A stretch of DNA of 64,000 nt from a virus. Taxonomy: Duplodnaviria; Caudoviricetes. The position numbers and the translations under genes are program-made. The stretch lies in the IMG/VR virus record IMGVR_UViG_3300005512_002353; one strand, 5' to 3'. The notes beneath the pieces were generated by a model. That model was not told the origin of the DNA. It saw nothing but the letters and a program-made list of their open reading frames with translations, and made no database searches. This document shows positions 1,195 to 58,414 of this stretch, piece by piece. Each line of letters begins with the position of its first letter. Position 1 is the first letter of the stretch.

Positions 1195-2261
1195 TTGATG
1201 TCAGTAAGTTAGAAGAAAAATATATTTACAAATTAAAGAGCCTGGTAAGAGGTTCGGATATTAGTAATCAAATTCCTTTTTCTTGTAATGCTCCTTGGAA
1301 GAACGTGATAATTGATACTGATTCAAATTGTTTTATCTGTAGATGTGATGGGTGGTTGCCGATACCAGTTGGACAAGTTCAAGATTTTGACTCAATGGAT
1401 GATGTGATTAACAGTCCTGTGGCAAAAGAATTACAGCAAGACATATCGGATAAAAAATTTACACACTGTGCTGTTGACACGTGTGGAATTACGAGCGGTG
1501 ATTTAAATTGGGAGACGATGTGGCTACAAATAAGTTTGGATGAGAGTTGTAACCTTGCATGTCCAAGTTGTAGGCGAGATACCATCACACTTAGCCAAGG
1601 TCCTGAATTTGACAAGAAATCCAAGGACATGGAGAAAATACTACAATGGATGGAAAGATATGAAGAGCCCTTACATGTTACGCTGTCGAGCAACGGTGAT
1701 CCATTGGCCAGCAGAATCATACGTCCGTTGGTTAAAAATTATATACCTAAGGATAATCAGACCTTTGAATTCAAGACCAATGGACTGCTAATGAAGAAAC
1801 ATCTCGCTGATAGCCCTTTATTCGACAACATCACTGTCTTTTCTATCAGTGTGGACGCAGGTTCTAAAGAGGTGTATGAGGATGTTCGTCGCCCAGGCAA
1901 ATGGGAAGCACTAATAGATAATTTAGAATTTTTAAAAAAACACGGTAAGAATAAATTAATCTGGATACAATTTGTAATTCAACAAAAAAACTATAATGAT
2001 CTAGATAATCTAGTAAGTTTGGTCGAGCAATTTGATTGTATGGCTACGATATTCGAGCTCCAAGATTGGGGGACATGGAATTATGAAGATGTTAAATATC
2101 CTGACACCTGGACCATTGCCAATGGAACTTATCTAGAACAAGACGTTTTGAGAAAACAACATCCTAATTATCTTGATGCTATTCAGAATTTAAGAAAAAT
2201 AGCTAACAATAAAAGAATAAGTTTTTCTCCTATAATAAAGAATTTAATAAATGCAAAATAA
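1191..2261 (+). CDS. radical SAM protein with N-terminal twitch-like Cys cluster (#1)
   Basis: CNAPW..CFICRC..CAVDTC, then CNLACPSC; SNGDP replaces GGEP; start moved to ATG 1191, which overlaps the upstream stop. Confidence 0.85.
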   Translation: MIDVSKLEEKYIYKLKSLVRGSDISNQIPFSCNAPWKNVIIDTDSNCFICRCDGWLPIPVGQVQDFDSMDDVINSPVAKELQQDISDKKFTHCAVDTCGITSGDLNWETMWLQISLDESCNLACPSCRRDTITLSQGPEFDKKSKDMEKILQWMERYEEPLHVTLSSNGDPLASRIIRPLVKNYIPKDNQTFEFKTNGLLMKKHLADSPLFDNITVFSISVDAGSKEVYEDVRRPGKWEALIDNLEFLKKHGKNKLIWIQFVIQQKNYNDLDNLVSLVEQFDCMATIFELQDWGTWNYEDVKYPDTWTIANGTYLEQDVLRKQHPNYLDAIQNLRKIANNKRISFSPIIKNLINAK

Positions 2262-12507: not shown

Positions 12508-12686
12508 GTAACAATATAGAAAGTCCTTGTATAGGAGTTTGCTCAGTAAATCCCAACACAGGGTATTGTCATGGGTGTTCACGGACACAAGAAGAAATGG
12601 ACAGTTGGTCGACAATGTCTGATAAAGAAAAAATAAAATTAATTAACGAATTAGAAAAAAGACAAGATGAGTTATTTGGGGATTAG
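12504..12686 (+). CDS. DUF1289-family small Cys-rich (putative Fe-S) protein
   Basis: SPCIGVC...CHGCSRT..E...W pattern. Confidence 0.8.
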   Translation: MSNNIESPCIGVCSVNPNTGYCHGCSRTQEEMDSWSTMSDKEKIKLINELEKRQDELFGD

Positions 12687-30408: not shown

Positions 30409-30437
30409 ATTATATGATCTTACGAGACGGTTGTCAA
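30409..30437 (-). promoter_or_regulatory. sigma70-type promoter TTGACA-N17-TATAAT with GATC next to -10
   Basis: ttgaca accgtctcgtaaGATCa tataat. Confidence 0.88.
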
Positions 30438-31942
30438 CCTAAAAGTTTACGACATTCTTCTAGTTCGGGAATATAATCCACCAACCTGATTCCTCTGGTT
30501 TGATCAAGTTGATCATTATACTCAAAAAATTGTTTTAGTAGTTTAAGATCGCATTTAGGATTGTTACTGTAGTGTGCTAACAAACTGTCAACAGTTGATC
30601 TACAACTACGTCCATCACTTAGATATGTATTTGTTTGTTGACAACGTTTCATTGACTCCATAACCAGATCTGGTCTAGGATGATTATATGCTGACTGCCA
30701 CTCGTTATGATTTACTTGAACATACAATCCTGGATTAGGCCATTCACGATCAAAGTATTCAAATAGTAAATGCAAGTTAGTTACATTATACATGCCCGGA
30801 ACCACTAAAAATGTAACGTTATGGCCTTTTGATTTTAATAGTTTGGCATTGTTCATCATTTGATCAAAGTCGCTGAGCCAACGTTGGTAATCATTTATCT
30901 TACTATAACCGTCAACGCTGACACTGAAATTCATATTGGTAAAATGGTCTATCAACTTTAGGAACTTGGGAGTATAGCTGACGGCATTGGTGCCGATGGT
31001 AAAATCAAAATCAGTGTTACCGGCTTCAATACATTTCTCCATGAAGTCATAGAACTCAGGCATCACACTGGGCTCTCCACCTGTCAGATAGATCCTGGAC
31101 TTATCGTTCAACTTTGTTATGTCAACATGCTCAAAACTTGAATACTTGAATGTTTGTTCTTGCGGAAAGATTATATTGTTTGAGGTGTATTCCTTATCGA
31201 TCAGATGGCTATGCTCCGGCTTACATGATCGACACATGATGTTACATTTATTGCTTAATCTGATTTCATAATAGTAGGGTTGTTCTATGGTCTGGAGATC
31301 CTCTATGGAACGTAGACCTAACTTACTGATCCATTCTAACGTCTCAAACTGTCGTGAGCTCTCAACGCCTCTCTCCTCATAAGCATAGCAACCATCCTGG
31401 CAATACTCAGGGATCTTTTCACCATTGATCATCTTCTCCCTAATTTCCTTGTATTCAGGTGCTGATTTCCAATCAATGATGTCAACGGCTCTGTCTGCAA
31501 CCTTGGCCTTTGATCTTGCACACAGTGTCACATGACCATGTTCTTCTATCAATTCAATGAAGGGATATATACAAAAGCTCTTGTTTGTCTGGACCAGATT
31601 CTGGAAGAACTCTATCCCCCTTACGCTTTCCTCGTTGTCGATCCTGACATCTATTAGTTTGTCCAGTTCTTTAATGAGCTTATATGTTGATAGGAATAAT
31701 TTCCAATGGGTCCATTCTTGTATTGGTTGGTCTAGCAGTCGAACTTGATCAAAATGTTTAGCCAGCTTGACTATCTGTCCGCTAGTTAAGTCAACTATGG
31801 TTGTATGATAGTATCCGTCTTGTGTTGGAACAAAAGAGGGATCCTCAATCAGCCCATGGTTCGTGGTTGAACTTTGTTTGGCTAGGTCTGACACCAAGAG
31901 GTCGGTATTTCTGCTGTTATTTCCTAAACAAAGTATCTTCAT
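30434..31942 (-). CDS. N-twitch radical SAM protein with extra N-terminal domain (#9), paralog of 4797..6275
   Basis: KILCLGNN; SFCIYPF; CQDGC; CNIMCRSC; TGGEP. Confidence 0.9.
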   Translation of the reverse strand: MKILCLGNNSRNTDLLVSDLAKQSSTTNHGLIEDPSFVPTQDGYYHTTIVDLTSGQIVKLAKHFDQVRLLDQPIQEWTHWKLFLSTYKLIKELDKLIDVRIDNEESVRGIEFFQNLVQTNKSFCIYPFIELIEEHGHVTLCARSKAKVADRAVDIIDWKSAPEYKEIREKMINGEKIPEYCQDGCYAYEERGVESSRQFETLEWISKLGLRSIEDLQTIEQPYYYEIRLSNKCNIMCRSCKPEHSHLIDKEYTSNNIIFPQEQTFKYSSFEHVDITKLNDKSRIYLTGGEPSVMPEFYDFMEKCIEAGNTDFDFTIGTNAVSYTPKFLKLIDHFTNMNFSVSVDGYSKINDYQRWLSDFDQMMNNAKLLKSKGHNVTFLVVPGMYNVTNLHLLFEYFDREWPNPGLYVQVNHNEWQSAYNHPRPDLVMESMKRCQQTNTYLSDGRSCRSTVDSLLAHYSNNPKCDLKLLKQFFEYNDQLDQTRGIRLVDYIPELEECRKLLG

Positions 31943-31946: not shown

Positions 31947-32022
31947 TGGCACTCCCAACCGGATTCGAACCGGTGTTGCCGCCGTGAAAGGGCAGTGTCC
32001 TAGGCCTCTAGACGATGGGAGC
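31947..32022 (-). tRNA. tRNA-Glu (anticodon TTC), CCA encoded
   Basis: 76-nt cloverleaf: GCTCCCA/TGGGAGT acceptor, loop CTTTCAC, GGTTCGAATCC. Confidence 0.95.
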
Positions 32023-34436: not shown

Positions 34437-34512
<76 letters not shown>

Positions 34513-37890: not shown

Positions 37891-38563
37891 GTATGTGCTT
37901 CATTACCCTCTTAGCCCAAGCACCATGTGCTCGTTCATCATAATGATAACTGTCCGGGCTAACAGTTTGGTAACCATTTTCCTGTAGCCACGAGTGATAT
38001 GATCCTGTATATGGGTCTATATATTGTGAACCAAAATCATACTGTTCTTTGATTTTTGAAAAGTCTGTGTTACCATTAAAAAACAAGTGTGGTATGTTTT
38101 GTTCAGTTAAATGTTCATGATATTTGATGATACGCTTGTGCCAATTATTAGTTGAACGTGTCCAATCAACATTGGCCACAAACTCTTTGTATTTTTGTTG
38201 ATGGCTTTCAGGAACATGATCAACACCTGACGCATTGACTTGGAAGTATTTGCCGTCTATGTTCCATTCTTCTCTTTCCCAGGTTGACCACTGTATGATG
38301 ACAAACACATCCTGTGATTGATGCTCTGCTAACCATTGGTTAGTAGTTCTTAGGATACGATCATTTGAACTAGCAGATTCTGCCAGAACATGTGTTGCGA
38401 CATTGAGCATGTTGCCTAACTTCTTGCCCCAACTTACTCGTAGATTATCAGGATGTGGGACCCTGCCCATGTAGACATATTTACGATCATCTTCTGCAAA
38501 TGCGTGACTGTTGACTGCCTCTGCACCTGCTGTGTGACTGTCACCGTTGATCAGTAACTTCAT
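37871..38563 (-). CDS. SGNH/GDSL hydrolase-like protein
   Basis: NGDSHTAG, SASSNDRI, IQWSTWER, YHYDERAH; paralog of 24045..24701. Confidence 0.65.
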   Translation of the reverse strand: MKLLINGDSHTAGAEAVNSHAFAEDDRKYVYMGRVPHPDNLRVSWGKKLGNMLNVATHVLAESASSNDRILRTTNQWLAEHQSQDVFVIIQWSTWEREEWNIDGKYFQVNASGVDHVPESHQQKYKEFVANVDWTRSTNNWHKRIIKYHEHLTEQNIPHLFFNGNTDFSKIKEQYDFGSQYIDPYTGSYHSWLQENGYQTVSPDSYHYDERAHGAWAKRVMKHILDNKLI

Positions 38564-38904
38564 TAATACTTCTGTTTCTCAGGAATAACACCTCTTACAC
38601 CACCTCTAGGATCTGCACAATCGCCCTGTGTGCGTGGAATAAGATGAATATGAGGATACATAACAGTCTGTCCTGCTGTCTCGCCTATGTTTTGTCCAAT
38701 ATTAAACCCATCACAGTAGCCTTTGCGAAACAGATCTTCTCCCCAATCATAGGCCGCTTCGTAACAGGCTTTTCTATGTAATGGATCATCTTTCTTGGGG
38801 ACAAACAATAAGTGTCCTTTGGTCACGGGATACTTGTCCTCAAACACCAAATATAAAGGTGTGTCGATCAGGGGATTCTTCCAGGGTGTGTCCTTAAGTT
38901 CCAT
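38563..38904 (-). CDS. HIT-family nucleotide hydrolase
   Basis: DKYPVTKGHLLFVPK, AGQTVMYPHIHLIPR. Confidence 0.9.
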   Translation of the reverse strand: MELKDTPWKNPLIDTPLYLVFEDKYPVTKGHLLFVPKKDDPLHRKACYEAAYDWGEDLFRKGYCDGFNIGQNIGETAGQTVMYPHIHLIPRTQGDCADPRGGVRGVIPEKQKY

Positions 38905-39281
38905 TATGATATCTCCGATTTGCCACCGCCTAGATCACGCTTGTTGGTCTTCATGCCTGGATTCATAGCCTGTTCCTGTTCCCATGTCTCCATGACAACG
39001 TTGCGACAGATATTTTGGAACCAACGATCAACTATATCTGAGTCCTTGTCATCTGGCTTGCCCTGATATCCTGCCTTGATCAGCCTAGCAACAAATATGT
39101 CATTCCACTCTAGTTCAAAGGCACCATCACTGATGTTCTCGGGATTAACATCCATCCTGACTATGTTAACGTAAGGTTCACCTCGTTCAGTTGCCTGGTC
39201 TGCCAGCGACTTCTTCTTAGTTGTTGTTTTCTTAGGTTCTTCTTTCTTAAACTTCTTTTTTATGTTATCAAATAATCCCAT
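38904..39281 (-). CDS. conserved phage hypothetical protein
   Basis: MGLFDNIKKK..ATERGEPYV..GAFELEWN; start moved to ATG 39281. Confidence 0.7.
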   Translation of the reverse strand: MGLFDNIKKKFKKEEPKKTTTKKKSLADQATERGEPYVNIVRMDVNPENISDGAFELEWNDIFVARLIKAGYQGKPDDKDSDIVDRWFQNICRNVVMETWEQEQAMNPGMKTNKRDLGGGKSEIS

Positions 39282-39282
39282 A

Positions 39283-40149
39283 TCACTTGCCCCAACTGTT
39301 CCCCCAAAGATCAACATGTAATCTTGGACTGTAATTATAACCACGTAGCATGGCCTCGTCTGCTACACTAAACTTATTACCATCATATACTTTAACAACA
39401 CCACCCACTGGCATGATGTATACAACTCCTTCAAACCCTGCTTCACGATATGCCTTGACAGCACGATCTACTTCATCAAAGTCACTGGGATTCTCTACCA
39501 CAAACTTGAGATAGGTTGTGCCATAACGTTCATATTCTGTAACAATCTCAGGCTTAATAGCATCTTCCCAACTCTCACCACTTGCTGATAATTTAGCACT
39601 GACACTAAATGTTATGTCACACTTAAAGTCTCCGCCTCTATCAAATGCCCATGCTAACAAGTAGGCTTTGAAATCCTCATGTAGTTCTTGTGTGCCGTTA
39701 GTTTCAAATGTAATATTTCTCAAGTCCTGCATACGAGGATTGTCTAACAAGTCTTTGTAACTACGTTGCCAACCTAGTAGAGGCTCTCCACCCGTTATGA
39801 CTAAATGCACATCATTACCATTGTCTTGCACCCACTTGTTGTTAGGTGTTAGTTCCAACAGTCTATCTACTACTGCTTCGTTTTCTAACATGGGTGATAA
39901 ATGTTTAAATCTTGGATCCCAGGATGCGTAACTGTCACATCCTGTATCAACTAAAGGCAAGTCCTCATAACGATTGTATAGTTCTACTTTAACATCATCA
40001 CGTTCTTCTGACATCTCACCTCTGGGCATACCAAAACCACCACAGGTAAAGTTACACCCAAATGTTCTTAAGAATACACTAGGAACGCCCACGAATCTGC
40101 CTTCACCTTGTGCCGAATAAAATATTTCACTGATCTTAAGTTTAGCCAT
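39283..40149 (-). CDS. queE: 7-carboxy-7-deazaguanine synthase (radical SAM)
   Basis: EIFYSAQGEG..VGVPSVFLR..GCNFTC...CDS, TGGEPLL, ETNGT, SPRLH. Confidence 0.9.
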   Translation of the reverse strand: MAKLKISEIFYSAQGEGRFVGVPSVFLRTFGCNFTCGGFGMPRGEMSEERDDVKVELYNRYEDLPLVDTGCDSYASWDPRFKHLSPMLENEAVVDRLLELTPNNKWVQDNGNDVHLVITGGEPLLGWQRSYKDLLDNPRMQDLRNITFETNGTQELHEDFKAYLLAWAFDRGGDFKCDITFSVSAKLSASGESWEDAIKPEIVTEYERYGTTYLKFVVENPSDFDEVDRAVKAYREAGFEGVVYIMPVGGVVKVYDGNKFSVADEAMLRGYNYSPRLHVDLWGNSWGK

Positions 40150-40923
40150 TTATACCTTTCTTGCCTTTACTAATAAGTGCCAACCCAAATACTCTCGAAC
40201 TGCTTCACGCATGAGTTCTGGCATGGCCTCAAACCAAGGTTCCAATTTAAACTTACCTTGCTTATACTTCTCTACATTATACATGAAACAGTGTGCTTGA
40301 CGCAACCTTTCTACAGTAAATTTTTTACCTAAAAGTTCATGTATCTCATCTGCTGTAAACGCTTCTGCGTATGGACAATCTGATTGTGCTTCAAACTGAT
40401 CTAGTCCTTTACGGATCATAGCATACTTCCATGAGTTCTTGGCATAGACCATAAACTTAAATTCACCATTGGTATTTAGAATACTGTGAACGTTGTCTAT
40501 AATTTTTTCTATGTTTGGAAAGTGATGTATAACACCGTAACTGTAAACTAGGTCAAACTTACCTAGTTTTTCGAGTGCTTCTAGATCTGTCATGTCTACA
40601 TTATGAAACTCGCCTTCTAGTTCAAACACTTCAAAGCGTTTTCTACTAAGTTCTAAACTTTCTGTTGATAAGTCAATGCCAACATAGTGGGCACCATTTT
40701 GTGCAAACTGTTGAGCATCTGTGCCAATACCACAACCAATTTCTAACACACGCTTACCTCTGTATTGATGAAACTGTGGAAAGTCTAGGTTATGTGGTTC
40801 TGCCTTGTAGCGTTTAGCAGTTACTTCTTCAAAGAACTCCTTTGTGCCCACAGGACTAGTTCCATGTTTGACATTACAAGGTTGTCTATTCCAGTAGTCT
40901 TTAATTTCTTGTTCTATGCTCAT
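40150..40923 (-). CDS. class I SAM-dependent methyltransferase
   Basis: VLEIGCGIG, GIDLS, FDLVYSYGVIHH. Confidence 0.9.
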   Translation of the reverse strand: MSIEQEIKDYWNRQPCNVKHGTSPVGTKEFFEEVTAKRYKAEPHNLDFPQFHQYRGKRVLEIGCGIGTDAQQFAQNGAHYVGIDLSTESLELSRKRFEVFELEGEFHNVDMTDLEALEKLGKFDLVYSYGVIHHFPNIEKIIDNVHSILNTNGEFKFMVYAKNSWKYAMIRKGLDQFEAQSDCPYAEAFTADEIHELLGKKFTVERLRQAHCFMYNVEKYKQGKFKLEPWFEAMPELMREAVREYLGWHLLVKARKV

Positions 40924-41810
40924 TCTTTTATCTTTTCGTTAGTTCCTGGAGCAAGCCTTGCAGTCTGTCCGTTTGGATCATTGGCCTTGAGATATTTCCA
41001 TGTATCTTCCTTGCCAGTGATAGCCTTTTCAAAATGATCATTATAGTCATCTATGGTTTTGAGATACCACATGATCCTAGCCGCATCTTGATATCTACGG
41101 TTGGTCATCTCTGGTGAGTTTAAGTCTCTTGGATCACTTGGATTGCCCTCAAACTGTGGTCTGTTGTTAAATGTCTCGTCATTGTTGTTGCCTGTTAGAT
41201 CAAATCGGTCATGTGTTACCTTAGCGGGAATGTTGACCATGATGTTACAGAGATATGCTATCTGACTTACCCAAGCATCTGTCATCTGTTGTGGACTAAG
41301 ATCTCCCAACAGGACCTTCCACTCATGTGGCACTATTGGAAATATCGAGTAAGGATGCTCACTTTGATCTGGCATACGTAAGACACGGAACTTGCCCGTG
41401 TGTTTTTCAATCTCGAGATCCCAATCCTTTGATTCCATGATGGCATCATCGTTCCAGAACATTATCCAACGACCCGATGCCTGTTGTCCTAGATAGTTGA
41501 TATAGGTGTTGAGCTGTGCGTATCCCCATCTTGGAACGACATGAACTTGATATTCAATTCCATTTTCCTTCATGTAAGGTATTGCCGTTGACTCGTAGTA
41601 ATCAATGCTTGTCTGATCGTCATCGTCTAGTGCTATGAGATATTCTATGTCAGTCTTGTCGCTGACAGTGTCCCATAGTGTTTTCAATGATTTGAAACTG
41701 AGCTCAGCACGTCCACGTGTTGGTAATAACACTGATATTCTCTTGTTAGGACCGAGCACTGCCTTTCGGCACACTTGCTCTAGAGTTGACATTTTCATGT
41801 TACCTGCCAT
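40920..41810 (-). CDS. GT2-family glycosyltransferase
   Basis: ISVLLPTRGR, LDDDD, FWNDD. Confidence 0.8.
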   Translation of the reverse strand: MAGNMKMSTLEQVCRKAVLGPNKRISVLLPTRGRAELSFKSLKTLWDTVSDKTDIEYLIALDDDDQTSIDYYESTAIPYMKENGIEYQVHVVPRWGYAQLNTYINYLGQQASGRWIMFWNDDAIMESKDWDLEIEKHTGKFRVLRMPDQSEHPYSIFPIVPHEWKVLLGDLSPQQMTDAWVSQIAYLCNIMVNIPAKVTHDRFDLTGNNNDETFNNRPQFEGNPSDPRDLNSPEMTNRRYQDAARIMWYLKTIDDYNDHFEKAITGKEDTWKYLKANDPNGQTARLAPGTNEKIKE

Positions 41811-42245
41811 TTATTTCCACCAATCCTCCCATGGAAACACGATCCAGACATCATCTTCCATTTTGTTAATATTGATACTAGAGTAATCAACATCAGCATC
41901 ACTGGCTTCGTTGTTGATTAGAACAGCATAGGTCAAGTTACCTATCCAGTGTTCTTTTATGTAATTAATTGTAGCACCTGTGTCGTTGATGTCATCTATA
42001 ACTAACACTCGTTGACCACTTAGTTTGTCTAACACTTTTAGACTTTCTTTTTCTTGATGATCTCTAAGACTTACCTTTAAGGTGTGCATAGGTATGTCTA
42101 GGTATTGTGAAACCAGCACAGCGGGTGTTAAACCACCCCTTGTGAGCCCAACTACTGCATCAAACTTCTCATCTCTAATCTGACGTAGTATGTCCTGCGT
42201 CATGCCCTCAACCTGCGACCATGTATAATATGCTTTCTTAGTCAT
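41811..42245 (-). CDS. purine phosphoribosyltransferase (xanthine-guanine PRT-like)
   Basis: GLTRGGL, VLVIDDINDTGAT (PRPP loop), WIVFPWE. Confidence 0.9.
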   Translation of the reverse strand: MTKKAYYTWSQVEGMTQDILRQIRDEKFDAVVGLTRGGLTPAVLVSQYLDIPMHTLKVSLRDHQEKESLKVLDKLSGQRVLVIDDINDTGATINYIKEHWIGNLTYAVLINNEASDADVDYSSININKMEDDVWIVFPWEDWWK

Positions 42246-42247
42246 TG

Positions 42248-42697
42248 TTAGCCCTCGTAGATTGCTGAGTTAGCACCGTGCTCAGCACACTCTACTGAAT
42301 GCACCCAACAACGATTGTTTGATTGTTCTCTGATTAGTTTGTCTGCAAAGTTAAATGCGTGTTCGGCAAACTTCTCTGCACCAACACCATCCAGGACTAC
42401 AACCTCTAATAAATCTAATTCTTGCAATTCCATGAACTTGTCCAAGTGTGGGTCTGCTTTATCAATAGCAGTCTTATGATCAAAGTGATCTTCTAACCAT
42501 TTCTTAATTTGTTTAAGCCCGCCAAAGTCTACTGCCCAGTTCTTGTTGTCTAAGTGATCACATGCAAATGTAAACTTAAACTGTAGACTGTAACCATGTA
42601 GTAAATGACAGTGTGAATGATCAGCATTAGGTTGTCTAAAACATGCTGATAGCCCAATGTTATGACCATATGTTTTTGTTGAATAAAATTTAGCCAT
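42248..42697 (-). CDS. queD: 6-carboxy-5,6,7,8-tetrahydropterin synthase (QueD/PTPS family)
   Basis: HSHCHLLHGY, VDFGGLK, FDHK, AEKFAE, EHGANSA. Confidence 0.85.
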   Translation of the reverse strand: MAKFYSTKTYGHNIGLSACFRQPNADHSHCHLLHGYSLQFKFTFACDHLDNKNWAVDFGGLKQIKKWLEDHFDHKTAIDKADPHLDKFMELQELDLLEVVVLDGVGAEKFAEHAFNFADKLIREQSNNRCWVHSVECAEHGANSAIYEG

Positions 42698-42785
42698 CTC
42701 TTGCCTCCTAAAAGTAAGTGTGATGACAGGCAGAATATTTTAAGACGGATGACTGTCTCGAGACGTCTTTGAGTATTCTATTTAG
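42693..42785 (-). promoter_or_regulatory. structured 5' leader of queD (candidate cis-regulatory RNA) behind CTAAATA
   Basis: AAGACG/CGTCTT stem, A-rich tail, anti-SD TGCCT and anti-AUG GTCATC segments. Confidence 0.5.
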
Positions 42786-42930
42786 CATCGTCTGAACGTT
42801 GCCTGCGATAATTTGCATTTCTAGTTTGTTCCTCAATGGCCTTCTTCATAAGTTTTAAAAATAACTTATCACCATTGGCTAATACTTTTAACTCTTTTTT
42901 AATCAGTGTTGCTTTTGGATCGTATCCCAT
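42778..42930 (-). CDS. small protein (50 aa)
   Basis: Not in track; MGYDPKATLIKKELK...; AGGAG RBS. Confidence 0.55.
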   Translation of the reverse strand: MGYDPKATLIKKELKVLANGDKLFLKLMKKAIEEQTRNANYRRQRSDDAK

Positions 42931-43106
42931 TTCATCTCCTCTATATAACATTCATCCATCATCTGTAGCATCATCTTGGTAGTCATGCGTCCAGCAAGAT
43001 ATTCATCAAGTTGGCTCCTGCAATAGTCACTGACTTCTACACCCTCCAATTTCAGTGATGCTATTGCTTGATCAACTGCCTGTTGTCTATCAATCTTTTT
43101 GGCCAC
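42903..43106 (-). CDS. VbhA-like antitoxin (Fic inhibitor)
   Basis: R..AV..AIASLKLEG (S/TxxxEG inhibitory motif) ...Y.AG.MT. Confidence 0.75.
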   Translation of the reverse strand: MAKKIDRQQAVDQAIASLKLEGVEVSDYCRSQLDEYLAGRMTTKMMLQMMDECYIEEMKWDTIQKQH

Positions 43107-43557
43107 GTTCTGCCTCTGCTACTCGTTTGCGTAATGAACTTGAACTAAATGAATGATCACGACCATTAAACACTAGTTCAATTCCTCTCTTCTTGCAGAT
43201 ATCTCGACCAGTGAACTCCTTGTCTTGATACTCCACTCCTAATATTCTAACATCAATCGGCAGTGTGAGCAAGATATCTTCCAAATCTTTTTCCGTTTGA
43301 TATACCACAATCTCATCAACGAAACGATTACAGGCTAACTGTATTTGTCTTTCAACTATTGATTGAACTGGAGGGTTCTTTGAATCTGGTCTATCTATGG
43401 TAGGATCTGTTTGTAGGCCAGCAATAAGATAATCACAATGATTCTTTGCCTCTGCTAACATAGCAACGTGACCTGCATGAAGCAGGTCGAACGTTGAGAA
43501 TGTTATGCCTATCTTAAGGCCTTGGTCTTTGAGCTCTCTGACTTTGTTGAATATCAT
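43090..43557 (-). CDS. cytidylyltransferase (TagD-like)
   Basis: TFDLLHAGH, ER..QL, VDEI, RDHSFSSSSL. Confidence 0.88.
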   Translation of the reverse strand: MIFNKVRELKDQGLKIGITFSTFDLLHAGHVAMLAEAKNHCDYLIAGLQTDPTIDRPDSKNPPVQSIVERQIQLACNRFVDEIVVYQTEKDLEDILLTLPIDVRILGVEYQDKEFTGRDICKKRGIELVFNGRDHSFSSSSLRKRVAEAERGQKD

Positions 43558-46031
43558 TAGAACTCCATTGACCAGTATGCACCTACTCTTGAATCACCAA
43601 ACTCGTCAACAACACCATTCATTCTCACTGAGTGTTCGTTGTTAAACTTGTCCTTGTGATTGACCAAGTTGTATTGAGCACCAACATACTTGACCACATC
43701 ACCTTTAAGACTTGCCTTGGCTGATGTGTAGTGCATGTTACCTGATGCGTCAACTGTTGTTGGAATCTGCATGTGAACGTTACCACTGATCACGGTTGGT
43801 TTGAAACCTACATACAAGTTCCAGTTGTCGTTGGCCCAACCAGCCATACCATACATACTTGTGATTGGATCTACCTCTCTAACCAAACCTTGTTCAAACT
43901 GTGTCGTGGTATACATCACACCAAGTTGTCCATAGAAGTTGTTAGGCTTATACATCTGTGAAAACTCAAATGTCTGTGAACTTCTAGTCTGACCCCACAT
44001 GCCACTGAACGCCATGAACGGTGAACCATAGCTCTGTGTGAATGTAAACTTACTGGTCCAGTCACTTGGATTTTCAACAGCACCTGTGTATGGATTACGT
44101 TTCATGAACACTGAATCATCAAAACCTACAGTAAAGTTCTGGACTGATTCTCTGTCCATGGTGTATGGAGTTTCGTATGCGTTGAAATACATACCCTTAT
44201 ACTCCTGTGCACCACCAACGAACTTACTTGACCATGAACTACCAACTGAGTGATCTAATTGATAGATTGGAATCATGGAGTTCATAGTAGTGGCCGCCGG
44301 CTTCAAATTGATAGTATAGTGTCTATCAATTGAGTCAACGACTGAGACAGAACTCAATGATGCCAATGCACCTTCATCCACACCTGCGATAGCAATACCA
44401 CCTGATAGAGGAACAGTAGTGCCTGTCCTGCCTGTGTATGAAATACCAACATCACCCAATGGCTGTGTCGCCTTGTCTAAGTCTAATAGACCACTACCGT
44501 GTGTGTCTTCGTCATAGCCTGTGATGGTCTTGTCAGCAGTTGTTGTCAACACCTTAACAATGTTATCACCTGTCATGTATGGCCACATCTGATGAACAAC
44601 AGCAACAGCACCTGCAACCACTGGAGCCGCCTGTGATGAACCTGAGAACTCTCTATATCCACCATCGATGTTTGCACCTTCGATGCCCATACCTGGAGCC
44701 AATATATAAAAGTCTTTGGTTCTGTATAAGTCATTACATTGTGCACCATCCCAACTCTTACACATGTGACCTGATGTCTGTCCCTCAACTGTCTGTGTGC
44801 TTACGTTCCAGTTACCTGCGATCAACATACGACCATCTAACACCAATGAACCATCTGCATTGGTAGCAGTGGCAAATGTGGCAGGATTTGAAACATAACC
44901 TTCACCTAGGTTACCAGCAGAAACAACTAAAACTGATTCAGTGCCTTCAAGTTTATTGTTAAACCAACTTGCGGGATTTTCTAAGTTATAGTAATTCTCA
45001 CCACCGTAGTAGTGATGATCACTGGTGTATATACCGTTGCCCTGATATGTCACAGACTCTCTATAATCACCTGAATAGTTTGTGTTTGAACTTAAACTAA
45101 ACACTGTGATATCTAACCCTTGATCTCTGGCATCTTTCATTGATCTCTTAGCAAGAGATGTTGATGAATTCCAGTTGTCCGTAATTTTATAGATAGCCAA
45201 GTTAGCATCTGGAGCAATACCAGTGATGCCTGAACCATCTAACTCACCGGCCGCAATCGACGCAACGTGTGAACCATGTCCAACATTGTCCTGCATGCCA
45301 GTTCCTGTCCAGTCCTTGGTATAAACAATCTTGCCCTCTGAATCAAATTCTTGGTGATCTAGATCAATACCACTGTCCATGATAGCAATAGTAGAACCCT
45401 TACCAGTCCAGCCTCTGGCCAGTGCGGCATCTTGGTTAACTATGCCGTTTAGATTATCAGCAAACTCATCTAGGCCAACATAGTAAGATGATTCGTTACT
45501 GATCATCTCAGTCCTGGTTCCCAAGAACTGGGCGTTTGCTCCAAAGTCCTGATTAACTGCTACATTGGTTGACTTGTCTGTTGAAACGACCTTTGTAGGC
45601 TCTTCTTTCTTAGCATACTCAATGATCTTTTCGGTAACCTGTGTATCAGCAAGTGTCCTAGTCTCACCCGAAGATTCTCTTATAGTTTCTCTATAAGTTC
45701 TTCCTTTGTGAGTTTTTTGTTTGAGTATACCACGTCTGTTGACTTTCTCCATCTTGAACACTTGACGTTTTTGAACTACCTTCTCAACTACGTCTGCTGT
45801 GATCTCATAAGTTTTGACGATGGTCTTCTCAACAGTATTACCATCTGCGTCCTTATACTGCTCTGTTGAAGTTTCCGTCGTTGTTGAGACATTACCTGGT
45901 AATGCCTTGCTTGAAAAAGTTTTAACGGTCTCAACGTATGTGTCCACGACCTGCCATGGTATCACGGCCAGTGCCGTGGTTGATACTGAAACCATTAAGA
46001 CCAATCCAAGGGCCTTAAGTTTGTTAAACAT
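43557..46031 (-). CDS. secreted S8 subtilisin-like protease with beta-rich C-terminal domain
   Basis: Signal peptide; MDSG (Asp), HGSHVA (His), SAGN, GSSQAAP (Ser); ends YWSMEF. Confidence 0.88.
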   Translation of the reverse strand: MFNKLKALGLVLMVSVSTTALAVIPWQVVDTYVETVKTFSSKALPGNVSTTTETSTEQYKDADGNTVEKTIVKTYEITADVVEKVVQKRQVFKMEKVNRRGILKQKTHKGRTYRETIRESSGETRTLADTQVTEKIIEYAKKEEPTKVVSTDKSTNVAVNQDFGANAQFLGTRTEMISNESSYYVGLDEFADNLNGIVNQDAALARGWTGKGSTIAIMDSGIDLDHQEFDSEGKIVYTKDWTGTGMQDNVGHGSHVASIAAGELDGSGITGIAPDANLAIYKITDNWNSSTSLAKRSMKDARDQGLDITVFSLSSNTNYSGDYRESVTYQGNGIYTSDHHYYGGENYYNLENPASWFNNKLEGTESVLVVSAGNLGEGYVSNPATFATATNADGSLVLDGRMLIAGNWNVSTQTVEGQTSGHMCKSWDGAQCNDLYRTKDFYILAPGMGIEGANIDGGYREFSGSSQAAPVVAGAVAVVHQMWPYMTGDNIVKVLTTTADKTITGYDEDTHGSGLLDLDKATQPLGDVGISYTGRTGTTVPLSGGIAIAGVDEGALASLSSVSVVDSIDRHYTINLKPAATTMNSMIPIYQLDHSVGSSWSSKFVGGAQEYKGMYFNAYETPYTMDRESVQNFTVGFDDSVFMKRNPYTGAVENPSDWTSKFTFTQSYGSPFMAFSGMWGQTRSSQTFEFSQMYKPNNFYGQLGVMYTTTQFEQGLVREVDPITSMYGMAGWANDNWNLYVGFKPTVISGNVHMQIPTTVDASGNMHYTSAKASLKGDVVKYVGAQYNLVNHKDKFNNEHSVRMNGVVDEFGDSRVGAYWSMEF

Positions 46032-46093: not shown

Positions 46094-46354
46094 GAATTTT
46101 TTGGCTTTTAGAAGTGCCGGAACTAGTGCGAGAGCGACCAAACAACCTATTAGGCTACCAAAAGCCAGAGGATAGTTAAGTGAAGCCATGCCACCTGCCC
46201 AGTCTGATATAGCATTACCAAACCCAGCACCGTAGACAGCACCTAGTCCTACTTGAAATTTTTTGGGGAATAGTTTTTCTAAGTGTAGTCCGTAGAGGGC
46301 ACCAAGTAGCATGATGCCGTTGTCTACAAAACCAAATATTAAGAAGTCGGTCAT
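46082..46354 (-). CDS. small membrane protein, TMEM65-like
   Basis: FGFVDNGIM...GFGNAISD motifs. Confidence 0.6.
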   Translation of the reverse strand: MTDFLIFGFVDNGIMLLGALYGLHLEKLFPKKFQVGLGAVYGAGFGNAISDWAGGMASLNYPLAFGSLIGCLVALALVPALLKAKKFLTK

Positions 46355-47088
46355 TAGCAGGCGAACTCCTGTTGTAGTTTGATATTATCCATAAACTCTT
46401 TCTTAGTTGCTGGATCATCATTGAAAGCACCTTTTAACACTGTGGTCTGTGTAAGACTTGAATGTGCCATGATGCCTCTGTTCTCACAACAACCGTGTGT
46501 TGCTTGGATGTAAACGCCTATGTTGTGTGACCCAGTGGCCGCTTCAATCTCTCTAGCAATATCATTACATAGTTCTTCTTGTAAGGTTCCACGTCTGGCA
46601 CACCATTGAGCAATACGTGTATATTTGGATAAGCCAATTAGTTTCTGTCCAGCAATGATACCAATGTAGGCTACACCTGTAACTGGTTGATGATGATGGC
46701 TACACATAGATCTAAGTTCTGATCTTACCACTAACATGCCCTCATATCTATCTGCTGAATCATTTGGGAAAGCAGTTGCGTTAGGATTGGGCTCATATCT
46801 ACCAACCATGATCTCATTGATATACATCTTAGCAAGACGTCTTGCTGTGCCCTTTGAATTAGGATCATTGTGTCTATCAATGATTAGGCTATCTAACACG
46901 CCTTCAAACTTTTCAGTGATCTCATCAATCAATGGTTCCTTCTCACTGGGGCCAATGTATTTTGCGATATTATCGCCTGCCCAATACCTAGCACCATCTT
47001 GTTTAATTCTGCTTACAATTCTTTCACTGATTGAGTCTGTGCTTAGTGCGTCTTGTTCTTCCCAATCTATCTTGCTTTCTACTGACAT
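46354..47088 (-). CDS. folE: GTP cyclohydrolase I
   Basis: SMCSHH, IGLSK, LQEE, HGCCENRG, TKKEF. Confidence 0.95.
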   Translation of the reverse strand: MSVESKIDWEEQDALSTDSISERIVSRIKQDGARYWAGDNIAKYIGPSEKEPLIDEITEKFEGVLDSLIIDRHNDPNSKGTARRLAKMYINEIMVGRYEPNPNATAFPNDSADRYEGMLVVRSELRSMCSHHHQPVTGVAYIGIIAGQKLIGLSKYTRIAQWCARRGTLQEELCNDIAREIEAATGSHNIGVYIQATHGCCENRGIMAHSSLTQTTVLKGAFNDDPATKKEFMDNIKLQQEFAC

Positions 47089-50994: not shown

Positions 50995-52254
50995 TTAAGC
51001 CTCCTCCGCTTTAAGATGTTTGTTAATAAGATTAACCAGTTTTGGATATACTGATCGCCAATCAGTATTTCTTCTTTCGTCCATCTTATCTAAAAATATA
51101 CACAAATTTTTAATTTCTGTCAAGTTGGGTTCTTTGCTTTTGGCTTGATTCCTTATACCCGTTAAGTATGCTTTTGCTGAACGATGCTCTGGTTCTCTGT
51201 CAGGCATGAGTGCTATTGCACGATCAAACTCCTCTGTGAACGCATCACCGAACATATCAATGAACATGTGTTTAACATTGTTAACGCTATTACCATACCA
51301 CCAAACGTCTCTAATTTCGTTCCATTTCTTTATCTTTTCAAACAATTGATCTAATGTCCATACAGTTAATGGAGTGATTGTAGATCCGATTACCAAAGTA
51401 ATCCATTCTTGTTTAAGTAGATATTCAAAATTCTTTTCCCAACGTTTTAGATTAAGTGGAAAACGAGCAAACTCTTGCTCTGCTCCCCAACAATCTAAAC
51501 TGGCTGTTATCTCTAATTTTTTAATATGTTTTCTGTCAATCAGAGACTTAATACGATCTATTTTATCTGTTAATTTGTTTTCTGCCACTGCTAAATTGCT
51601 AAAAAATGTTAGTGTTAGCTTAGGAGCAGGATGTTCTTCTAATACATTCAGCAGTTGATCAAACTCAACTTGATATAATGGTTCTCCACCTAACACATTT
51701 AACTGATATAACTGCTGACTATTTTTTTGAATCCACTCAAAGCACCTCTTTTTATTTTGTTCAAAGTTTGGGTCTGCTAAAAATATTTTTCCTCCAATTT
51801 GTCCGTCAAATCTGATATTTTCATCTTCCCAAAGACTACTAAAATAAGGACCGCAATAAGTGCATTTTAGATTACAAGTGTTATTAAAATATATTTCAAG
51901 TATTCTTGGAGTTACTTCAACAGCAGTTAAGTCTGTCTCTAGTTCTATAGGACCTTCAAAAGGCCACATGTCCAAGTTCGAAATTCGATCACTTTGGCCT
52001 CCAGCTTCTTCAATATCACGACAATATTCACATCCGTGTCCAGGCCATTGGCCTTTTAACATTTTTTCTCTTGCTTTAATCTTTCCCGGAGTATTATGGA
52101 AGTTAAAATCTTCTGAGATTTTCTCAAAGTCAACTCGATGGCAACTAGCTGTAGTTCCTTCTTTAAGGTATATAGTAGACCAAGACCATTTAAGTTGACA
52201 GGCTGTTGCTGTCTTTATTGGAAATACTTTAGTCTGTTTGTAGTTCGAGTTCAT
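50995..52254 (-). CDS. N-twitch radical SAM protein (#10)
   Basis: CQLKW..SCHR..CEYC; CNLKCTYC; LGGEP; AT-rich. Confidence 0.9.
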   Translation of the reverse strand: MNSNYKQTKVFPIKTATACQLKWSWSTIYLKEGTTASCHRVDFEKISEDFNFHNTPGKIKAREKMLKGQWPGHGCEYCRDIEEAGGQSDRISNLDMWPFEGPIELETDLTAVEVTPRILEIYFNNTCNLKCTYCGPYFSSLWEDENIRFDGQIGGKIFLADPNFEQNKKRCFEWIQKNSQQLYQLNVLGGEPLYQVEFDQLLNVLEEHPAPKLTLTFFSNLAVAENKLTDKIDRIKSLIDRKHIKKLEITASLDCWGAEQEFARFPLNLKRWEKNFEYLLKQEWITLVIGSTITPLTVWTLDQLFEKIKKWNEIRDVWWYGNSVNNVKHMFIDMFGDAFTEEFDRAIALMPDREPEHRSAKAYLTGIRNQAKSKEPNLTEIKNLCIFLDKMDERRNTDWRSVYPKLVNLINKHLKAEEA

Positions 52255-54579: not shown

Positions 54580-55757
54580 CTATCTTTGGAATTTTGTTTA
54601 CCAATATCATTGATTAGTTTTCTTTCTTCTTGAATAGCTTGTTTTCTACGTTTGATCAATAGTTCTAACTTGCCTATTGAAATAGATCCTCCACGAATCT
54701 TTTCTTCCTTGTCGATGCCCAATGCTATAGCTTCATTGATAATAGTGTCTTGTTCCTCTCGAGTATATGATTTTTTATCAGTTACGACAGCATCCTTGGC
54801 GTGTATCACTCGACCTAAACTTTGTCCGCCACGTATAGTTTCTAATTCTCCTGGTTTCTTAAGTTCCATCCATCCATGTATGGTCTCTGTCCTAAATCTC
54901 ATTGTATAGCCTAGTTTCTCAATCATAGGCACTAGTATACTGCCTGGAGTAAACTGTCGGAAATTATTCTCAAAGTTTCTTACATTATGTGCGTTGTCAC
55001 AGTCGTTGTATGTAAACAACAATGTGCCTCCAGGACGCAGTAAAGCAAATACTTGTGTCAGGACCTGCTCACACATGCTGAGTGGTAGATTGTTTAGTGT
55101 GTTCCATAACACTATCAGACCAAATTGATCGTTAGGAAGATCCCCAAAGTATTTTTTGCGTGGAATGAACCTATCAATGACATAGGGTCTTACCCTATGC
55201 TTATACACATCATTCATCTTTCCTCTTATGTCATCCAAGGTTGACTCATTCATGTCAACTAGATACAAAGGATCACTTGATGCCATCTCGTCAATTATCT
55301 TCTGTTCCTGAGGATGTATGATCATGCCAGGATAACGCCAGTTGCTGAGCTGGGTGATTCGATCAAAGAATTTATCTGTGTTCTCGTCATCCATAGATAA
55401 TGTTCTTTCTTTGGCAGATAGTCTAGCATCTGGTAGTTCATCACTGATATATGAATTCTCAGATCGTTTGATATACACTTGCTGTTGTTCTTGTATGATG
55501 TCATCCAGCTGTTTCTTGTAGTATTCAAAGTTCTCACCTAACTCTGATATAGACTCTTCCAATCTCAACAGATCTCTATCCATCTCGTCCTGATAGACAC
55601 CAGCACCAAATTTAATCTGTTGATTGGTTTCAGTATCGACCTTGTTGTCAACGTGTGCCTTGGCCTCTAGTATGGTCTTTATCAACAGACGAGAGTCTCT
55701 ATGGAAATCAAACTGGTCCAAGGCTGATCTATAGGCTACTAGTTCACTAAGTTTCAT
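54576..55757 (-). CDS. coiled-coil + methyltransferase-like domain protein
   Basis: QFGLIV..N..N, LLRPGGTLLFTYN; motif I degenerate. Confidence 0.55.
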   Translation of the reverse strand: MKLSELVAYRSALDQFDFHRDSRLLIKTILEAKAHVDNKVDTETNQQIKFGAGVYQDEMDRDLLRLEESISELGENFEYYKKQLDDIIQEQQQVYIKRSENSYISDELPDARLSAKERTLSMDDENTDKFFDRITQLSNWRYPGMIIHPQEQKIIDEMASSDPLYLVDMNESTLDDIRGKMNDVYKHRVRPYVIDRFIPRKKYFGDLPNDQFGLIVLWNTLNNLPLSMCEQVLTQVFALLRPGGTLLFTYNDCDNAHNVRNFENNFRQFTPGSILVPMIEKLGYTMRFRTETIHGWMELKKPGELETIRGGQSLGRVIHAKDAVVTDKKSYTREEQDTIINEAIALGIDKEEKIRGGSISIGKLELLIKRRKQAIQEERKLINDIGKQNSKDS

Positions 55758-58414
55758 TAGAATTCAAACAAGTTATTAAAGGTGTTGGCAGTCTGTGTTG
55801 CTCCCGCCAAGTTCCAATCCAACACTGACAACAGGTTGTCCACTTTCTGGTCAACGATCGTTGCCTCCATTTCCGCATCATCAAAGGGTAGTTCCTTGAA
55901 CCATCCTGGTATGTGTAGTTCATCTGTGGGGTAAGCAATACTTGTCCAACCCATTGGATTTGATTTTAGTTTGCACACGATCACTTTCATGCCATCAATA
56001 ATCTGGAGACTGTATTTGTCATCGTTCATGCGTTTCATCGTGTTCCAGTTCATGCCTGCCCTAACGTGTCCTGGCATGTTGGCCTTACCTAGTCGTTTCT
56101 CCTCCTTGGTATACTTGGTCAAGTTATTAACACGTTTAGGTGTGCCCTTCTCCCAACCTGGACGCTCTCTAAACTCATGTTTGAACTGTAGGATCTGTTC
56201 TACGATATCCTCACGCTCACTGCCCATTAGCACATTGTGTAATACATCACTTAGAAAGTTCTGTATCACAGGCGGAGTATCTGAACGTTTCAAATCTAAG
56301 CCCATGGCCTTGATCTTACCTGGCTTGCCCTCAACGTCTAGACGTTTGCCTTCACTGTCATATACCATGATGGCATAACGTTTCTTAGTGATAAACAGTC
56401 CTCTTGATGCTACTGATTCCCTACCACCTCGGATGATCTCTCCCATGTGCTGTGGAACATGGAATGCCCGTTCCATAAATCCTGGAAAACTTTCGTTAAC
56501 TGATTCTGCTATGTTATCGTATAACTGTATGGCGGTTTCTTTTGACCATTCCATCTGCCCTGCTTCAACATCATCTTTGACCATTGGCCAAGCACTAAAG
56601 TAACAGGAATCAGTATCACCATAAATGATTGACTTACCCACGTGATCATATTCTCCCGTGATCAACTCATTGATGTGTGCGTCCATGTGTTTGGCAATAG
56701 CACGACCTGTCAGTGTAGTTGACTGTCCAATGCGTTTGTCAAAGAAACGACATCCTGGATTGAGGATGGCACCATACAATGAGTTCAAGTTAATCTTCTT
56801 AACTAACTGTCTCTTGTCCCAGAACTCTATCTCTTCTTTGGTAGTTGCTGATCTAAGTTTGGCCTGCATTTCCTTACGTTCTGCATACCAGCGTTTAAGC
56901 AGTCCTGGCACGACTGCTTCAGTTTCATATGTGAATATGGTTCCATTAGCACTCAGTATCCAGGGATTGTTTGAATCAAATATCATCTTCCATACCTGAG
57001 CCGCGGAATATGTATCTTCTCCACCTTGATTCCAATCAATGGTAACTTCAGTGCCCACATCCTGTTTCATCACTGCTTCATATTCTAAACTACCAAACAG
57101 ACCTTCCCAGGCTGATGCAAATGAGTTGCCCTTGTTCATCTTTTCACGGATGTAACGATCAGTCATTACGGGACGTAGTTGTCCCACTATGGCCTCGTTA
57201 CCCATGTTCAAAGCACGAATCGCTGAAGGATACAGTGAGTTGATGTCAACTGAGCCAATCCAATCGTGTAAGCCCTTGCGTGGATATGCCACATAAGCAC
57301 CTGCGGCCTGTGTGTCCTCGTCTGTTAAACGCTCACGTCTGTTAGGAACAACAAGTCCACGTTCGTGTGCTTCATTGATGATGGCCTGTTCAGTAACAGC
57401 AACAGCACCCATTGTTGTCTGTAGTAGCACAGTGTTCGCATGTGCAAGTTCGTTGGCTAGATCAATGAACTTGAGCTTGTCGTCCATCTTCTTGAGCAGA
57501 TGTGTGTCCTGTCTGTTATACTCAATGAACGTTTCAAAGTTATCATTGTATAGTTGATCCAATGTGCCTTCATAGTCTGTCTTGCGTTCACCTAGCTCAT
57601 GCTCACCAATGGCATCCAAACTATATGAATGACGCTCCTCATAGGTATACTTTCTATAGAGTTGCATGTAGTCCAAATGCACACGACCTATGATGTCAAA
57701 TGTGATGTTCTCTGCACCAAAGCGTTCAAACGTTCTCTTCTTGGGCAGTTGTTCCCACAAACAGAAACGGCGTGTGTCGTCTTTACTAAGCACCCTAGTA
57801 ACACGATTGACGGTGTAGGGTATATCATAGCCCTCGGAGTTCCAACCACTCAATATATCAGCATCTTCTATTAGATCTAAGAACGTTCCTAATAGATCTT
57901 CCTCACGATCAAATAAGTAAGTGTCCTCAAACTTGGCCACCGTGGCCTCTGCTTCTGCCCAGGATATCTTCTTAGGTGGTAACACCAATGTCACTAACTT
58001 GTCCATCCAATCTAGGTAAACAGATATTGCCGTGATAGCATTAAACGGATCCGCTGGTGATGAGTATCCTCTCTCGGGATCAAAGTCTACCTCAATATCG
58101 AAAAACGCTGTATGTAGTTTTGGTGCGTCAATGTTTTGATAATTGTCTGCTAGACAGCGGAACACAGGATTGATATCACTTTCATACAAGCGTTTCTGTC
58201 CCTGTATCTTGACTTCCTTGTGGAACTCTTTTGCTGAACGTGTAGAAAATCTAGTTACGGGTGTGCCATAGATTGATCTATGTTTGCCTTTGGGATCCTC
58301 GTAGTAAAACACATAACTGGCAGGGAACTCTTTGAACTCTCTCTGTCCATCTACCCTCTCAACTATGTGTATGCGATCACCTGAGCGATCAAATAGTGCG
58401 TCTATGTAGCTCAA
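55757..58414 (-). CDS. family B DNA polymerase
   Basis: Exo FFDIE, GWNSEGYD, YNRQD; pol DINSLYPS, K..LNSLYG, YGDTDS, KKRY; TTG start. Confidence 0.97.
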   Translation of the reverse strand: MSYIDALFDRSGDRIHIVERVDGQREFKEFPASYVFYYEDPKGKHRSIYGTPVTRFSTRSAKEFHKEVKIQGQKRLYESDINPVFRCLADNYQNIDAPKLHTAFFDIEVDFDPERGYSSPADPFNAITAISVYLDWMDKLVTLVLPPKKISWAEAEATVAKFEDTYLFDREEDLLGTFLDLIEDADILSGWNSEGYDIPYTVNRVTRVLSKDDTRRFCLWEQLPKKRTFERFGAENITFDIIGRVHLDYMQLYRKYTYEERHSYSLDAIGEHELGERKTDYEGTLDQLYNDNFETFIEYNRQDTHLLKKMDDKLKFIDLANELAHANTVLLQTTMGAVAVTEQAIINEAHERGLVVPNRRERLTDEDTQAAGAYVAYPRKGLHDWIGSVDINSLYPSAIRALNMGNEAIVGQLRPVMTDRYIREKMNKGNSFASAWEGLFGSLEYEAVMKQDVGTEVTIDWNQGGEDTYSAAQVWKMIFDSNNPWILSANGTIFTYETEAVVPGLLKRWYAERKEMQAKLRSATTKEEIEFWDKRQLVKKINLNSLYGAILNPGCRFFDKRIGQSTTLTGRAIAKHMDAHINELITGEYDHVGKSIIYGDTDSCYFSAWPMVKDDVEAGQMEWSKETAIQLYDNIAESVNESFPGFMERAFHVPQHMGEIIRGGRESVASRGLFITKKRYAIMVYDSEGKRLDVEGKPGKIKAMGLDLKRSDTPPVIQNFLSDVLHNVLMGSEREDIVEQILQFKHEFRERPGWEKGTPKRVNNLTKYTKEEKRLGKANMPGHVRAGMNWNTMKRMNDDKYSLQIIDGMKVIVCKLKSNPMGWTSIAYPTDELHIPGWFKELPFDDAEMEATIVDQKVDNLLSVLDWNLAGATQTANTFNNLFEF

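Follow-up and report, generated by a model that had tools for sequence, protein, structure and literature searches.

A conserved pseudoknot in the leaders of phage queD genes is a candidate translational ON switch

Here, we identify a structured RNA in the leader of a queD-like gene within a 64,000-nt stretch of phage DNA (hereafter, the window) and describe its relatives before queD genes of other phages. We give a probability of roughly 0.6 to the reading that the queD leader is an H-type pseudoknot aptamer of ∼45 nt, belonging to an uncatalogued family and followed by a translational expression platform. Comparison of homologous leaders makes it nearly certain that the element is a real cis-regulatory structured RNA, and we think it probable that this RNA is a metabolite-binding riboswitch.

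The queD leader and its conserved fold

All genes around the queD leader lie on the minus strand of the window. The leader occupies a gap of 80 nt, from the stop codon of a 57-aa ORF at 42778 to the queD start at 42697. All other junctions between 37871 and 46031 are overlaps or spacings of at most 2 nt, which bears out the remark in an earlier, sequence-only reading of this DNA that a gap of ∼80 nt is exceptional in this operon. The RNA of the gap reads AAUACUC-AAGACG-UCUCGA-GACAG-UCA-UC-CGUCUU-AAAAUAUUC-UGC-CUGUC-AUCACACUUACUUUU-AGGAGG-CAAGAG-AUG, and its segment 42769-42725 fits an H-type pseudoknot in which AAGACG pairs with CGUCUU to form P1, and GACAG-UCA pairs with UGC-CUGUC to form P2 (Table 1). 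Because the upstream ORF ends so close to P1, the element is intercistronic in the window phage and not the 5' end of the mRNA. This ORF is kept in the relatives L001, L002, L006, and L007. It is overlapped by a 67-aa ORF (42903-43106, minus strand) with a match to VbhA antitoxins (PF18495, 1.7e-9); among the annotated neighbors of this VbhA-like ORF, none was of the Fic family.

Table 1. Features of the queD leader and its flanking genes in the window
Feature	Position	Strand	Basis or remark
Upstream 57-aa ORF	42778..42951	-	Stop 8 nt 5' of P1
P1 5' strand, AAGACG	42764..42769	-	Covaries: AU/UA, GC/AU, AU/CG/UA, GC/CG
L1, UCUCGA	42758..42763	-	Invariant columns and parse
P2 5' strand, GACAG and conserved UCA	42750..42757	-	Variable pairs covary
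L2, UC	42748..42749	-	C42748 invariant, unpaired, at P1/P2 junction
P1 3' strand, CGUCUU	42742..42747	-	Covaries
L3, A-rich tail, AAAAUAUUC	42733..42741	-	A42736, U42734, and C42733 invariant
P2 3' strand, UGC and CUGUC	42725..42732	-	G42731 and C42730 invariant
Anti-start helix, 5' strand, GUCAUC	42722..42727	-	GUC common to P2 3' strand
Shine-Dalgarno, AGGAGG	42704..42709	-	Read from sequence
Anti-start helix, 3' strand, GAUGGC	42693..42698	-	Contains queD start codon, 42697-42695
QueD-like PTPS-family gene, 149 aa, CHLLHGY motif	42248..42697	-	PF01242; phrog_2389, 1e-41

An IMG/VR search with the QueD protein returned ∼600 relatives, and the best 80 of these (80 to 97% identity) were taken as loci L001 to L080. 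The pseudoknot motif is present in 53 of these best 80 loci and, together with the window, they provide 35 distinct sequences that fit one architecture in a rule-based parse. P1 has 3 to 7 bp, usually 5, and a G:C top pair; it is followed by L1, usually ACUU, by a variable P2 5' strand and then UC(A/G), and by an L2 of 2 to 3 nt whose last base is an invariant unpaired C. Next come the P1 3' strand, an A-rich L3 ending in (A/U)YUC, and (U/C)GC with the variable P2 3' strand. In window numbering, the P1 top pair G42764:C42747 is invariant across relatives; in L1, which is ACUU in most relatives and UCUC in the clade of the window, C42762 is invariant and U42761 is kept in >90% of sequences. P2 is a helix of 6 to 10 bp with a conserved internal U.C mismatch, which in the window places C42730 opposite U42752. 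In its 5' strand, the GACAG portion is variable while U42752 and C42751 are invariant, and the final base, A or G, covaries with U or C at 42732. The closing pair of P2 thereby alternates between A:U and G:C with both sides changing together (UCA...UGC vs UCG...CGC). The length of L3 follows that of P1, 3 to 4 bp occurring with 7 to 8 nt and 5 to 6 bp with 9 to 10 nt. Altogether, ∼12 loop and junction nucleotides are invariant.

Two alignments support this fold. First, in a MAFFT alignment (A2), which was trimmed using our own structural parse, 90.7% of cells are paired and 10 of 12 pairs have double changes; the covariation score is 0.584 compared to 0.05 to 0.12 with partners slid (at most 0.14 for any slid control), and none of 500 shuffles scores as high. 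Second, in an alignment of 58 distinct rows from a separate pattern scan described below (A3), 93.8% of cells are paired and the score is 0.597, slid controls reaching 0.14 at most. The model to which A3 was aligned contains P2, which favors the P2 counts; P1 was absent from that model, and its covariation in A3 is unbiased. Slid controls pair in 33 to 55% of cells compared to 91 to 94% in the two alignments. These comparative data show, to the extent that covariation in alignments can, that P1 and P2 exist. Two features generally found in riboswitches are present here: a covarying structure with conserved unpaired nucleotides, and a consistent 5' leader position before functionally related genes.

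Taken by itself, the leader of the window has neither a significant fold nor a significant anti-start pairing, and the support is comparative. The fold of the leader has a z-score of −0.99, with 37 of 200 shuffles folding equally well or better; the P1 hairpin has a z-score of −0.55, and the duplex over the ribosome-binding site (RBS) has z = 0.06 compared to composition-matched shuffles. The outer pairing AGAAUAC/AUAUUCU of the minimum-energy structure was rejected as it is not conserved in L006.

The strings on which the sequence-only reading relied are all present on the minus strand, and the covariation that it proposed to look for among homologous queD leaders is strong in both alignments. 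It had recognized P1, as an AAGACG-N16-CGTCTT stem that indeed covaries in relatives, and the A-rich tail, its AAAATA being the conserved L3, while it missed the core helix P2. The inner palindrome GTCTCGAGAC that it saw in the stem is not conserved, L005 and L006 having GTCTCCAGAC instead; the 3' half of the palindrome, GACAG, is the P2 5' strand. Similarly, the suggested pairing of TGCCT with AGGCA does not hold across relatives, for L005 lacks GGCA, and the TGC belongs to P2. Of the two GTCATC copies proposed to pair with GATGGC, the second (42727-42722) lies in a covarying anti-start register, and the first is aptamer core (G-UCA-UC). CTAAATA is present as quoted and is merely the end of the upstream ORF.

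Distribution and gene context

The element is essentially confined to the leaders of QueD-family genes in uncultured, mostly jumbo, phages. Each motif-bearing locus has exactly one copy, always directly 5' of queD, and so does the window. A degenerate sequence-pattern scan of viral contigs, in which QueD was not used, provided a second sample of 80 loci. A covariance model built from A2 accepts 75 of these, and in 71 of the 75 the motif lies 12 to 102 nt upstream of a QueD homologue (32 to 85% identity). Of the four others, two are truncated where the contig ends, a third is followed by a divergent canonical QueD that had escaped tblastn, and the last lies 400 nt upstream of queD. The motif is also found directly 5' of queD in 10 of 80 further loci that encode a second, divergent QueD subfamily with CxxxHGH.

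A looser pattern applied to prokaryotic genome contigs gave 80 listed matches, none of which is accepted by the covariance model, and we therefore regard the matches listed as chance matches. A model search of ∼300 bacterial genomes gave no true match, these being two samples of 151 that do not prove absence. The sole bacterial match, at 27.6 bits, was rejected; it lies inside a peptidase-T-like coding region, whose identity was read from the ORF translation. Among cultured phages, no QueD exceeded 55% identity, blastn matched nothing to the leader, and no laboratory phage with the motif was found. A full-text literature search found no description of the motif, and riboswitches are nowhere mentioned in the main papers on 7-deazaguanine in phages.

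The loci L001 to L004 encode QueD proteins 95 to 97% identical to that of the window and yet lack the pseudoknot. Thus, the element is dispensable, and these four loci are natural deletion variants that represent minus-switch controls. In L001 and L002, the same 57-aa ORF is followed by ∼16 nt to the start codon (queD is at 3001 or 1100 in L001 to L004). Many of the loci L008 to L080 have a near-consensus TTGACA-17-TATAAT promoter ending ∼7 nt 5' of P1, so that the aptamer would be the very 5' end of the mRNA in those relatives; the clade of the window has the upstream ORF in place of this promoter.

All 80 QueD-like proteins of L001 to L080 have CHLLHGY where canonical QueD has CxxxHGH, i.e., a tyrosine in place of the third zinc-ligand histidine, and the subfamily is below the NCBIfam cut-off for QueD (39.7 vs 89 bits). 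The true reaction of the enzyme may differ from CPH4 synthesis. In the window, 38563-42697 and 46354-47088 (minus strand) encode FolE, the QueD-like protein, a xanthine/guanine-type phosphoribosyltransferase, a glycosyltransferase-like protein, a SAM methyltransferase, a QueE-like radical-SAM protein, and a HIT protein; the genes for the phosphoribosyltransferase, the glycosyltransferase-like protein, the methyltransferase, and QueE come after queD. Among these genes only queD carries the motif, which is lacking from folE (46354-47088) and the queE-like gene (39283-40149). Likewise, in the 96%-complete 356-kb phage G001, a relative, FolE and QueE are present elsewhere without the motif, and QueC and TGT/DpdA were not detected in this genome. 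Such a gene set, with QueC and TGT/DpdA apparently absent, points to a route at the level of nucleotides, like that of toyocamycin synthesis, and not to transglycosylation of DNA.

In many relatives (L013, L016, L024, L053, L047, and L063), no que genes lie downstream of queD; found there are genes for GT8-like glycosyltransferases, a phosphomannomutase, an enzyme of the KDO8P/DAHP-synthase family, a JmjC-like protein, or a UvdE endonuclease. Because the genes downstream of queD vary, the regulated unit appears to be queD itself and not a fixed operon. In the window, a subtilase of 824 aa (Peptidase_S8) and a cytidylyltransferase-like protein are encoded at 43557-46031 (minus strand), between folE and queD in one run of genes. 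Additional radical-SAM proteins are encoded at 2251-3675, 30434-31942, and 50995-52254, a Nol-like carbamoyltransferase at 12667-14160, and a family-B DNA polymerase at 55757-58414; this gene content is in keeping with a large phage that has many auxiliary metabolism genes. Two tRNA genes (31950-32022 and 34440-34512, minus strand) are the only Rfam matches in the window.

Expression platform and direction of switching

A scan for promoters and terminators found no terminator and no strong promoter in the 80-nt gap, and we therefore reject transcription attenuation for the window phage. Because there is no terminator and 27 nt separate the knot from the AUG, control should be translational. 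As proposed in the sequence-only reading, the leader has the architecture of a translational switch; its structure is conserved, covaries, and is tied to queD, and no terminator lies nearby.

Several lines of evidence bear on how such a switch would operate. First, the P2 3' strand doubles as the 5' strand of a helix that covaries and lies over the start codon or, in other clades, over the Shine-Dalgarno sequence. In 41 of 70 distinct platforms, a CAU located 8 to 9 nt past the start of UCYGC, at the 3' edge of P2, pairs with the AUG, and the pairs to either side of it covary with codon 2 and with the bases 5' of the AUG (GCCAU/AUGGC, CCCAU/AUGGG, AAGUCAUC/GAUGACUU, and UGUCAUUGUU/AACAAUGGCA). 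The GUCAUC/GAUGGC pairing of the window has its CAU at offset 9, in the register of the family. The other 29 platforms lack the CAU helix and have weaker CUCC/GGAG or CCUAUG/CAUAGG pairings, which in other clades cover the Shine-Dalgarno sequence. Second, the anti-start helix and the P2 3' strand have 2 to 7 nt in common and are, therefore, mutually exclusive; mutually exclusive expression-platform structures are found for the family as a whole. Third, when the P2 3' strand is blocked, the minimum-energy structure of the platform is destabilized in 34 of 35 sequences, the mean going from −7.1 to −1.9 kcal/mol, and the platform hairpin of the window goes from −8.4 to −1.9 kcal/mol. The P2 duplex energy, with a mean of −4.6 kcal/mol, is comparable to the platform stability lost on blocking, and the predicted accessibility of the ribosome site increases from 0.48 to 0.64 on aptamer folding. 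The advantage of the anti-RBS duplex over composition-matched shuffles is, however, modest across the family (mean z of −0.94, 6 of 35 sequences below −1.64) and absent in the window itself.

Because P2 and the sequestering helix exclude each other and are of roughly equal strength, the arrangement has the design of an ON switch, in which, according to these folding models, formation of the pseudoknot should free the ribosome site. The sequence-only reading did not say which way the element would switch; its wiring speaks for ON and, provided that the element is a switch at all, ON is probably its direction.

The same pseudoknot could instead be an OFF switch for feedback repression by a deazaguanine product (CDG, preQ0, or preQ1), either because the ligand-stabilized knot, which lies 5 to 27 nt 5' of the Shine-Dalgarno sequence, blocks 30S standby binding or because a conserved CUCU/CUCC docks on the Shine-Dalgarno sequence. 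Repression by the end product is the rule among the known preQ1 classes, and in the queD leaders L3 ends in CUCU or CUCC, which is complementary to GGAG, and the knot ends only ∼7 nt 5' of the Shine-Dalgarno sequence in L012 and L070. However, the covarying anti-start helix competes for the very nucleotides of the P2 3' strand, the modeled accessibility goes up and not down with the aptamer formed, and the Shine-Dalgarno sequence never lies within P2. Given this wiring, we consider an OFF switch unlikely.

Ligand, alternative explanations, and known RNA families

C42748, which stays unpaired where P1 meets P2, is invariant and is, therefore, a candidate ligand-pairing base, with a role that we presume to be like that of C15/C17 in preQ1-I riboswitches. 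A junction C between a P1 capped by G:C and a conserved P2 end mirrors the preQ1-I pocket and, by this analogy, suggests a guanine-faced heterocycle as ligand. In the mechanism that we propose, a guanine-faced small molecule would bind at the P1/P2 junction against C42748. Candidate ligands are 7-deazaguanines such as preQ0, preQ1, or CDG; pterins such as H2NTP or CPH4, respectively the substrate and the product of QueD; and guanine itself. Binding would stabilize P2, and the stabilized P2 would withdraw GUC (42727-42725) from the GUCAUC/GAUGGC hairpin. Opening of this hairpin would then expose AGGAGG and the AUG, turning translation of queD on. A substrate-like signal, such as H2NTP, another pterin, or a guanine nucleotide, fits ON logic better than an end product would, with a deazaguanine as a further, less favored candidate. 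ON logic on a biosynthetic gene is, to our knowledge, unlike every known preQ1 riboswitch. We put at about even the chances of the fuller proposal, in which a new, apparently phage-restricted riboswitch class with a preQ1-I-like pocket senses a guanine-faced metabolite of the route GTP to H2NTP to CPH4 to CDG and turns queD on; its ligand is possibly a pterin or a deazapurine for which no riboswitch is known.

A protein rather than a metabolite could shift the same equilibrium if the leader were a translational operator bound by QueD itself, as autoregulation, or by an RNA-binding protein of phage or host. Phage pseudoknot operators exist, e.g., that of T4 gene 32, and such an operator would be in keeping with an element that accompanies queD through very different gene neighborhoods and with the unusual conservation of the main QueD subfamily (80 to 97% identity, fixed CHLLHGY). 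However, the same RNA precedes the second QueD subfamily, which is only ∼35% identical and has the canonical CxxxHGH, and the small size of the element together with invariant unpaired bases clustered at a helix junction is typical of a metabolite pocket. Moreover, we know of no RNA binding by PTPS-family enzymes. On this evidence, we regard a protein-binding operator as quite improbable.

We give still less credence to a ligand-independent structured leader, i.e., a 5' knot that stabilizes the mRNA, an enhancer or brake of translation, or an RNA thermometer, with the alternative hairpin merely tuning basal expression. In keeping with it, the transcript would begin right behind the promoter in many relatives, and the close relatives L001 to L004 do without the element. 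By contrast, the dozen unpaired nucleotides that are invariant, together with the conserved U.C mismatch, exceed what stability needs; the exclusive tie to a single family of enzymes points to a specific signal; and the element is not 5'-terminal in the window.

Metabolite binding by the pseudoknot, the reading that we prefer, invites comparison with catalogued riboswitches, and no catalogued RNA family appears, from covariance-model searches, to match the queD-leader pseudoknot. The Infernal/Rfam scan proposed in the sequence-only reading was run; at gathering scores, Rfam 15, preQ1-I, -II, and -III included, gave no relevant match in the window and 20 loci, and at E≤10 it gave no match on window 42500-43000 or on 12 motif-bearing loci. 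In the phage G001, RF00522, with a gathering threshold of 39 bits, gave weak matches of ≤16 bits, none of them at the motif. That reading had already seen a topology like that of preQ1-I without a sequence match, in agreement with the outcome for the covariance model.

The queD leader resembles preQ1-I (RF00522; Bacillus subtilis queC, T. tengcongensis) in being a small H-type pseudoknot with a P1 of 4 to 6 bp capped by G:C, in the unpaired conserved C immediately 5' of the P1 3' strand, in an A-rich L3 expected to lie in the P1 groove, and in its place in the leader of a 7-deazaguanine pathway gene under translational control. The association of preQ1-I with queuosine/7-deazaguanine genes is found here as well, with FolE and a QueE-like gene in the same window. 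It differs in several respects. P2 has 6 to 10 bp and the U.C mismatch, whereas that of preQ1-I has 3 to 4 bp. L1 reads ACUU or UCUC and the end of L3 is (A/U)YUC-YGC, whereas preQ1-I has AAAAAACUA. The Shine-Dalgarno sequence lies not in P2 but 7 to 40 nt downstream of it, and there is no terminator. A separate covarying helix over the start codon or Shine-Dalgarno sequence competes with P2, implying ON, whereas preQ1-I is OFF. Finally, the queD-leader motif was found on contigs of uncultured phages, whereas the ∼300 bacterial genomes sampled gave no true match. Because a covariance match, a short P2 with the Shine-Dalgarno sequence, and OFF wiring are all lacking, we describe the leader as having a preQ1-I-like fold and not as a member of that family. 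That it is an ordinary preQ1-I riboswitch overlooked by the model, despite the same element order (P1, L1, P2, L2, P1', A-rich L3, P2'), the conserved C, and the link to a queuosine-pathway gene, is highly improbable in view of the absence of RF00522 matches, the long P2 separate from the Shine-Dalgarno sequence, the different L1 and L3 consensus, and the opposite wiring.

The leader also resembles preQ1-II (RF01054) and preQ1-III (RF02680), which are pseudoknotted leaders of queuosine-related genes and of which preQ1-III similarly has its ribosome site apart from the ligand pocket; both are OFF switches of ∼80 to 100 nt with HLout-type folds and extra hairpins, and neither model matched the queD leader. 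SAM-II, SAM-V, fluoride, and guanidine-III riboswitches are likewise compact two-helix pseudoknots with the ligand at or along the junction, and often act on translation; however, their conserved nucleotides are unrelated, they have other gene associations, and there was no Rfam match. The adenine riboswitch add of Vibrio vulnificus is a translational ON switch with a shared-strand platform. As in the queD leader, one strand is either part of the aptamer or part of a helix that sequesters the ribosome site and the start codon; its aptamer is a three-way junction, and the likeness is one of mechanism only and not of ancestry.

Phage-borne riboswitches are rare, and the known preQ1 classes are all bacterial OFF switches. 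If our reading is correct, an aptamer of ∼45 nt with the opposite logic adds a riboswitch class, probably with a new ligand or specificity. Owing to its small size and its clear alternative pairing, the element is easy to test and appealing for use as a synthetic ON switch. It would also open a direct way to study the timing of the 7-deazapurine pathway in large aquatic phages; jumbo phages would meter entry into this pathway, apparently without QueC and the DpdA transglycosylase.
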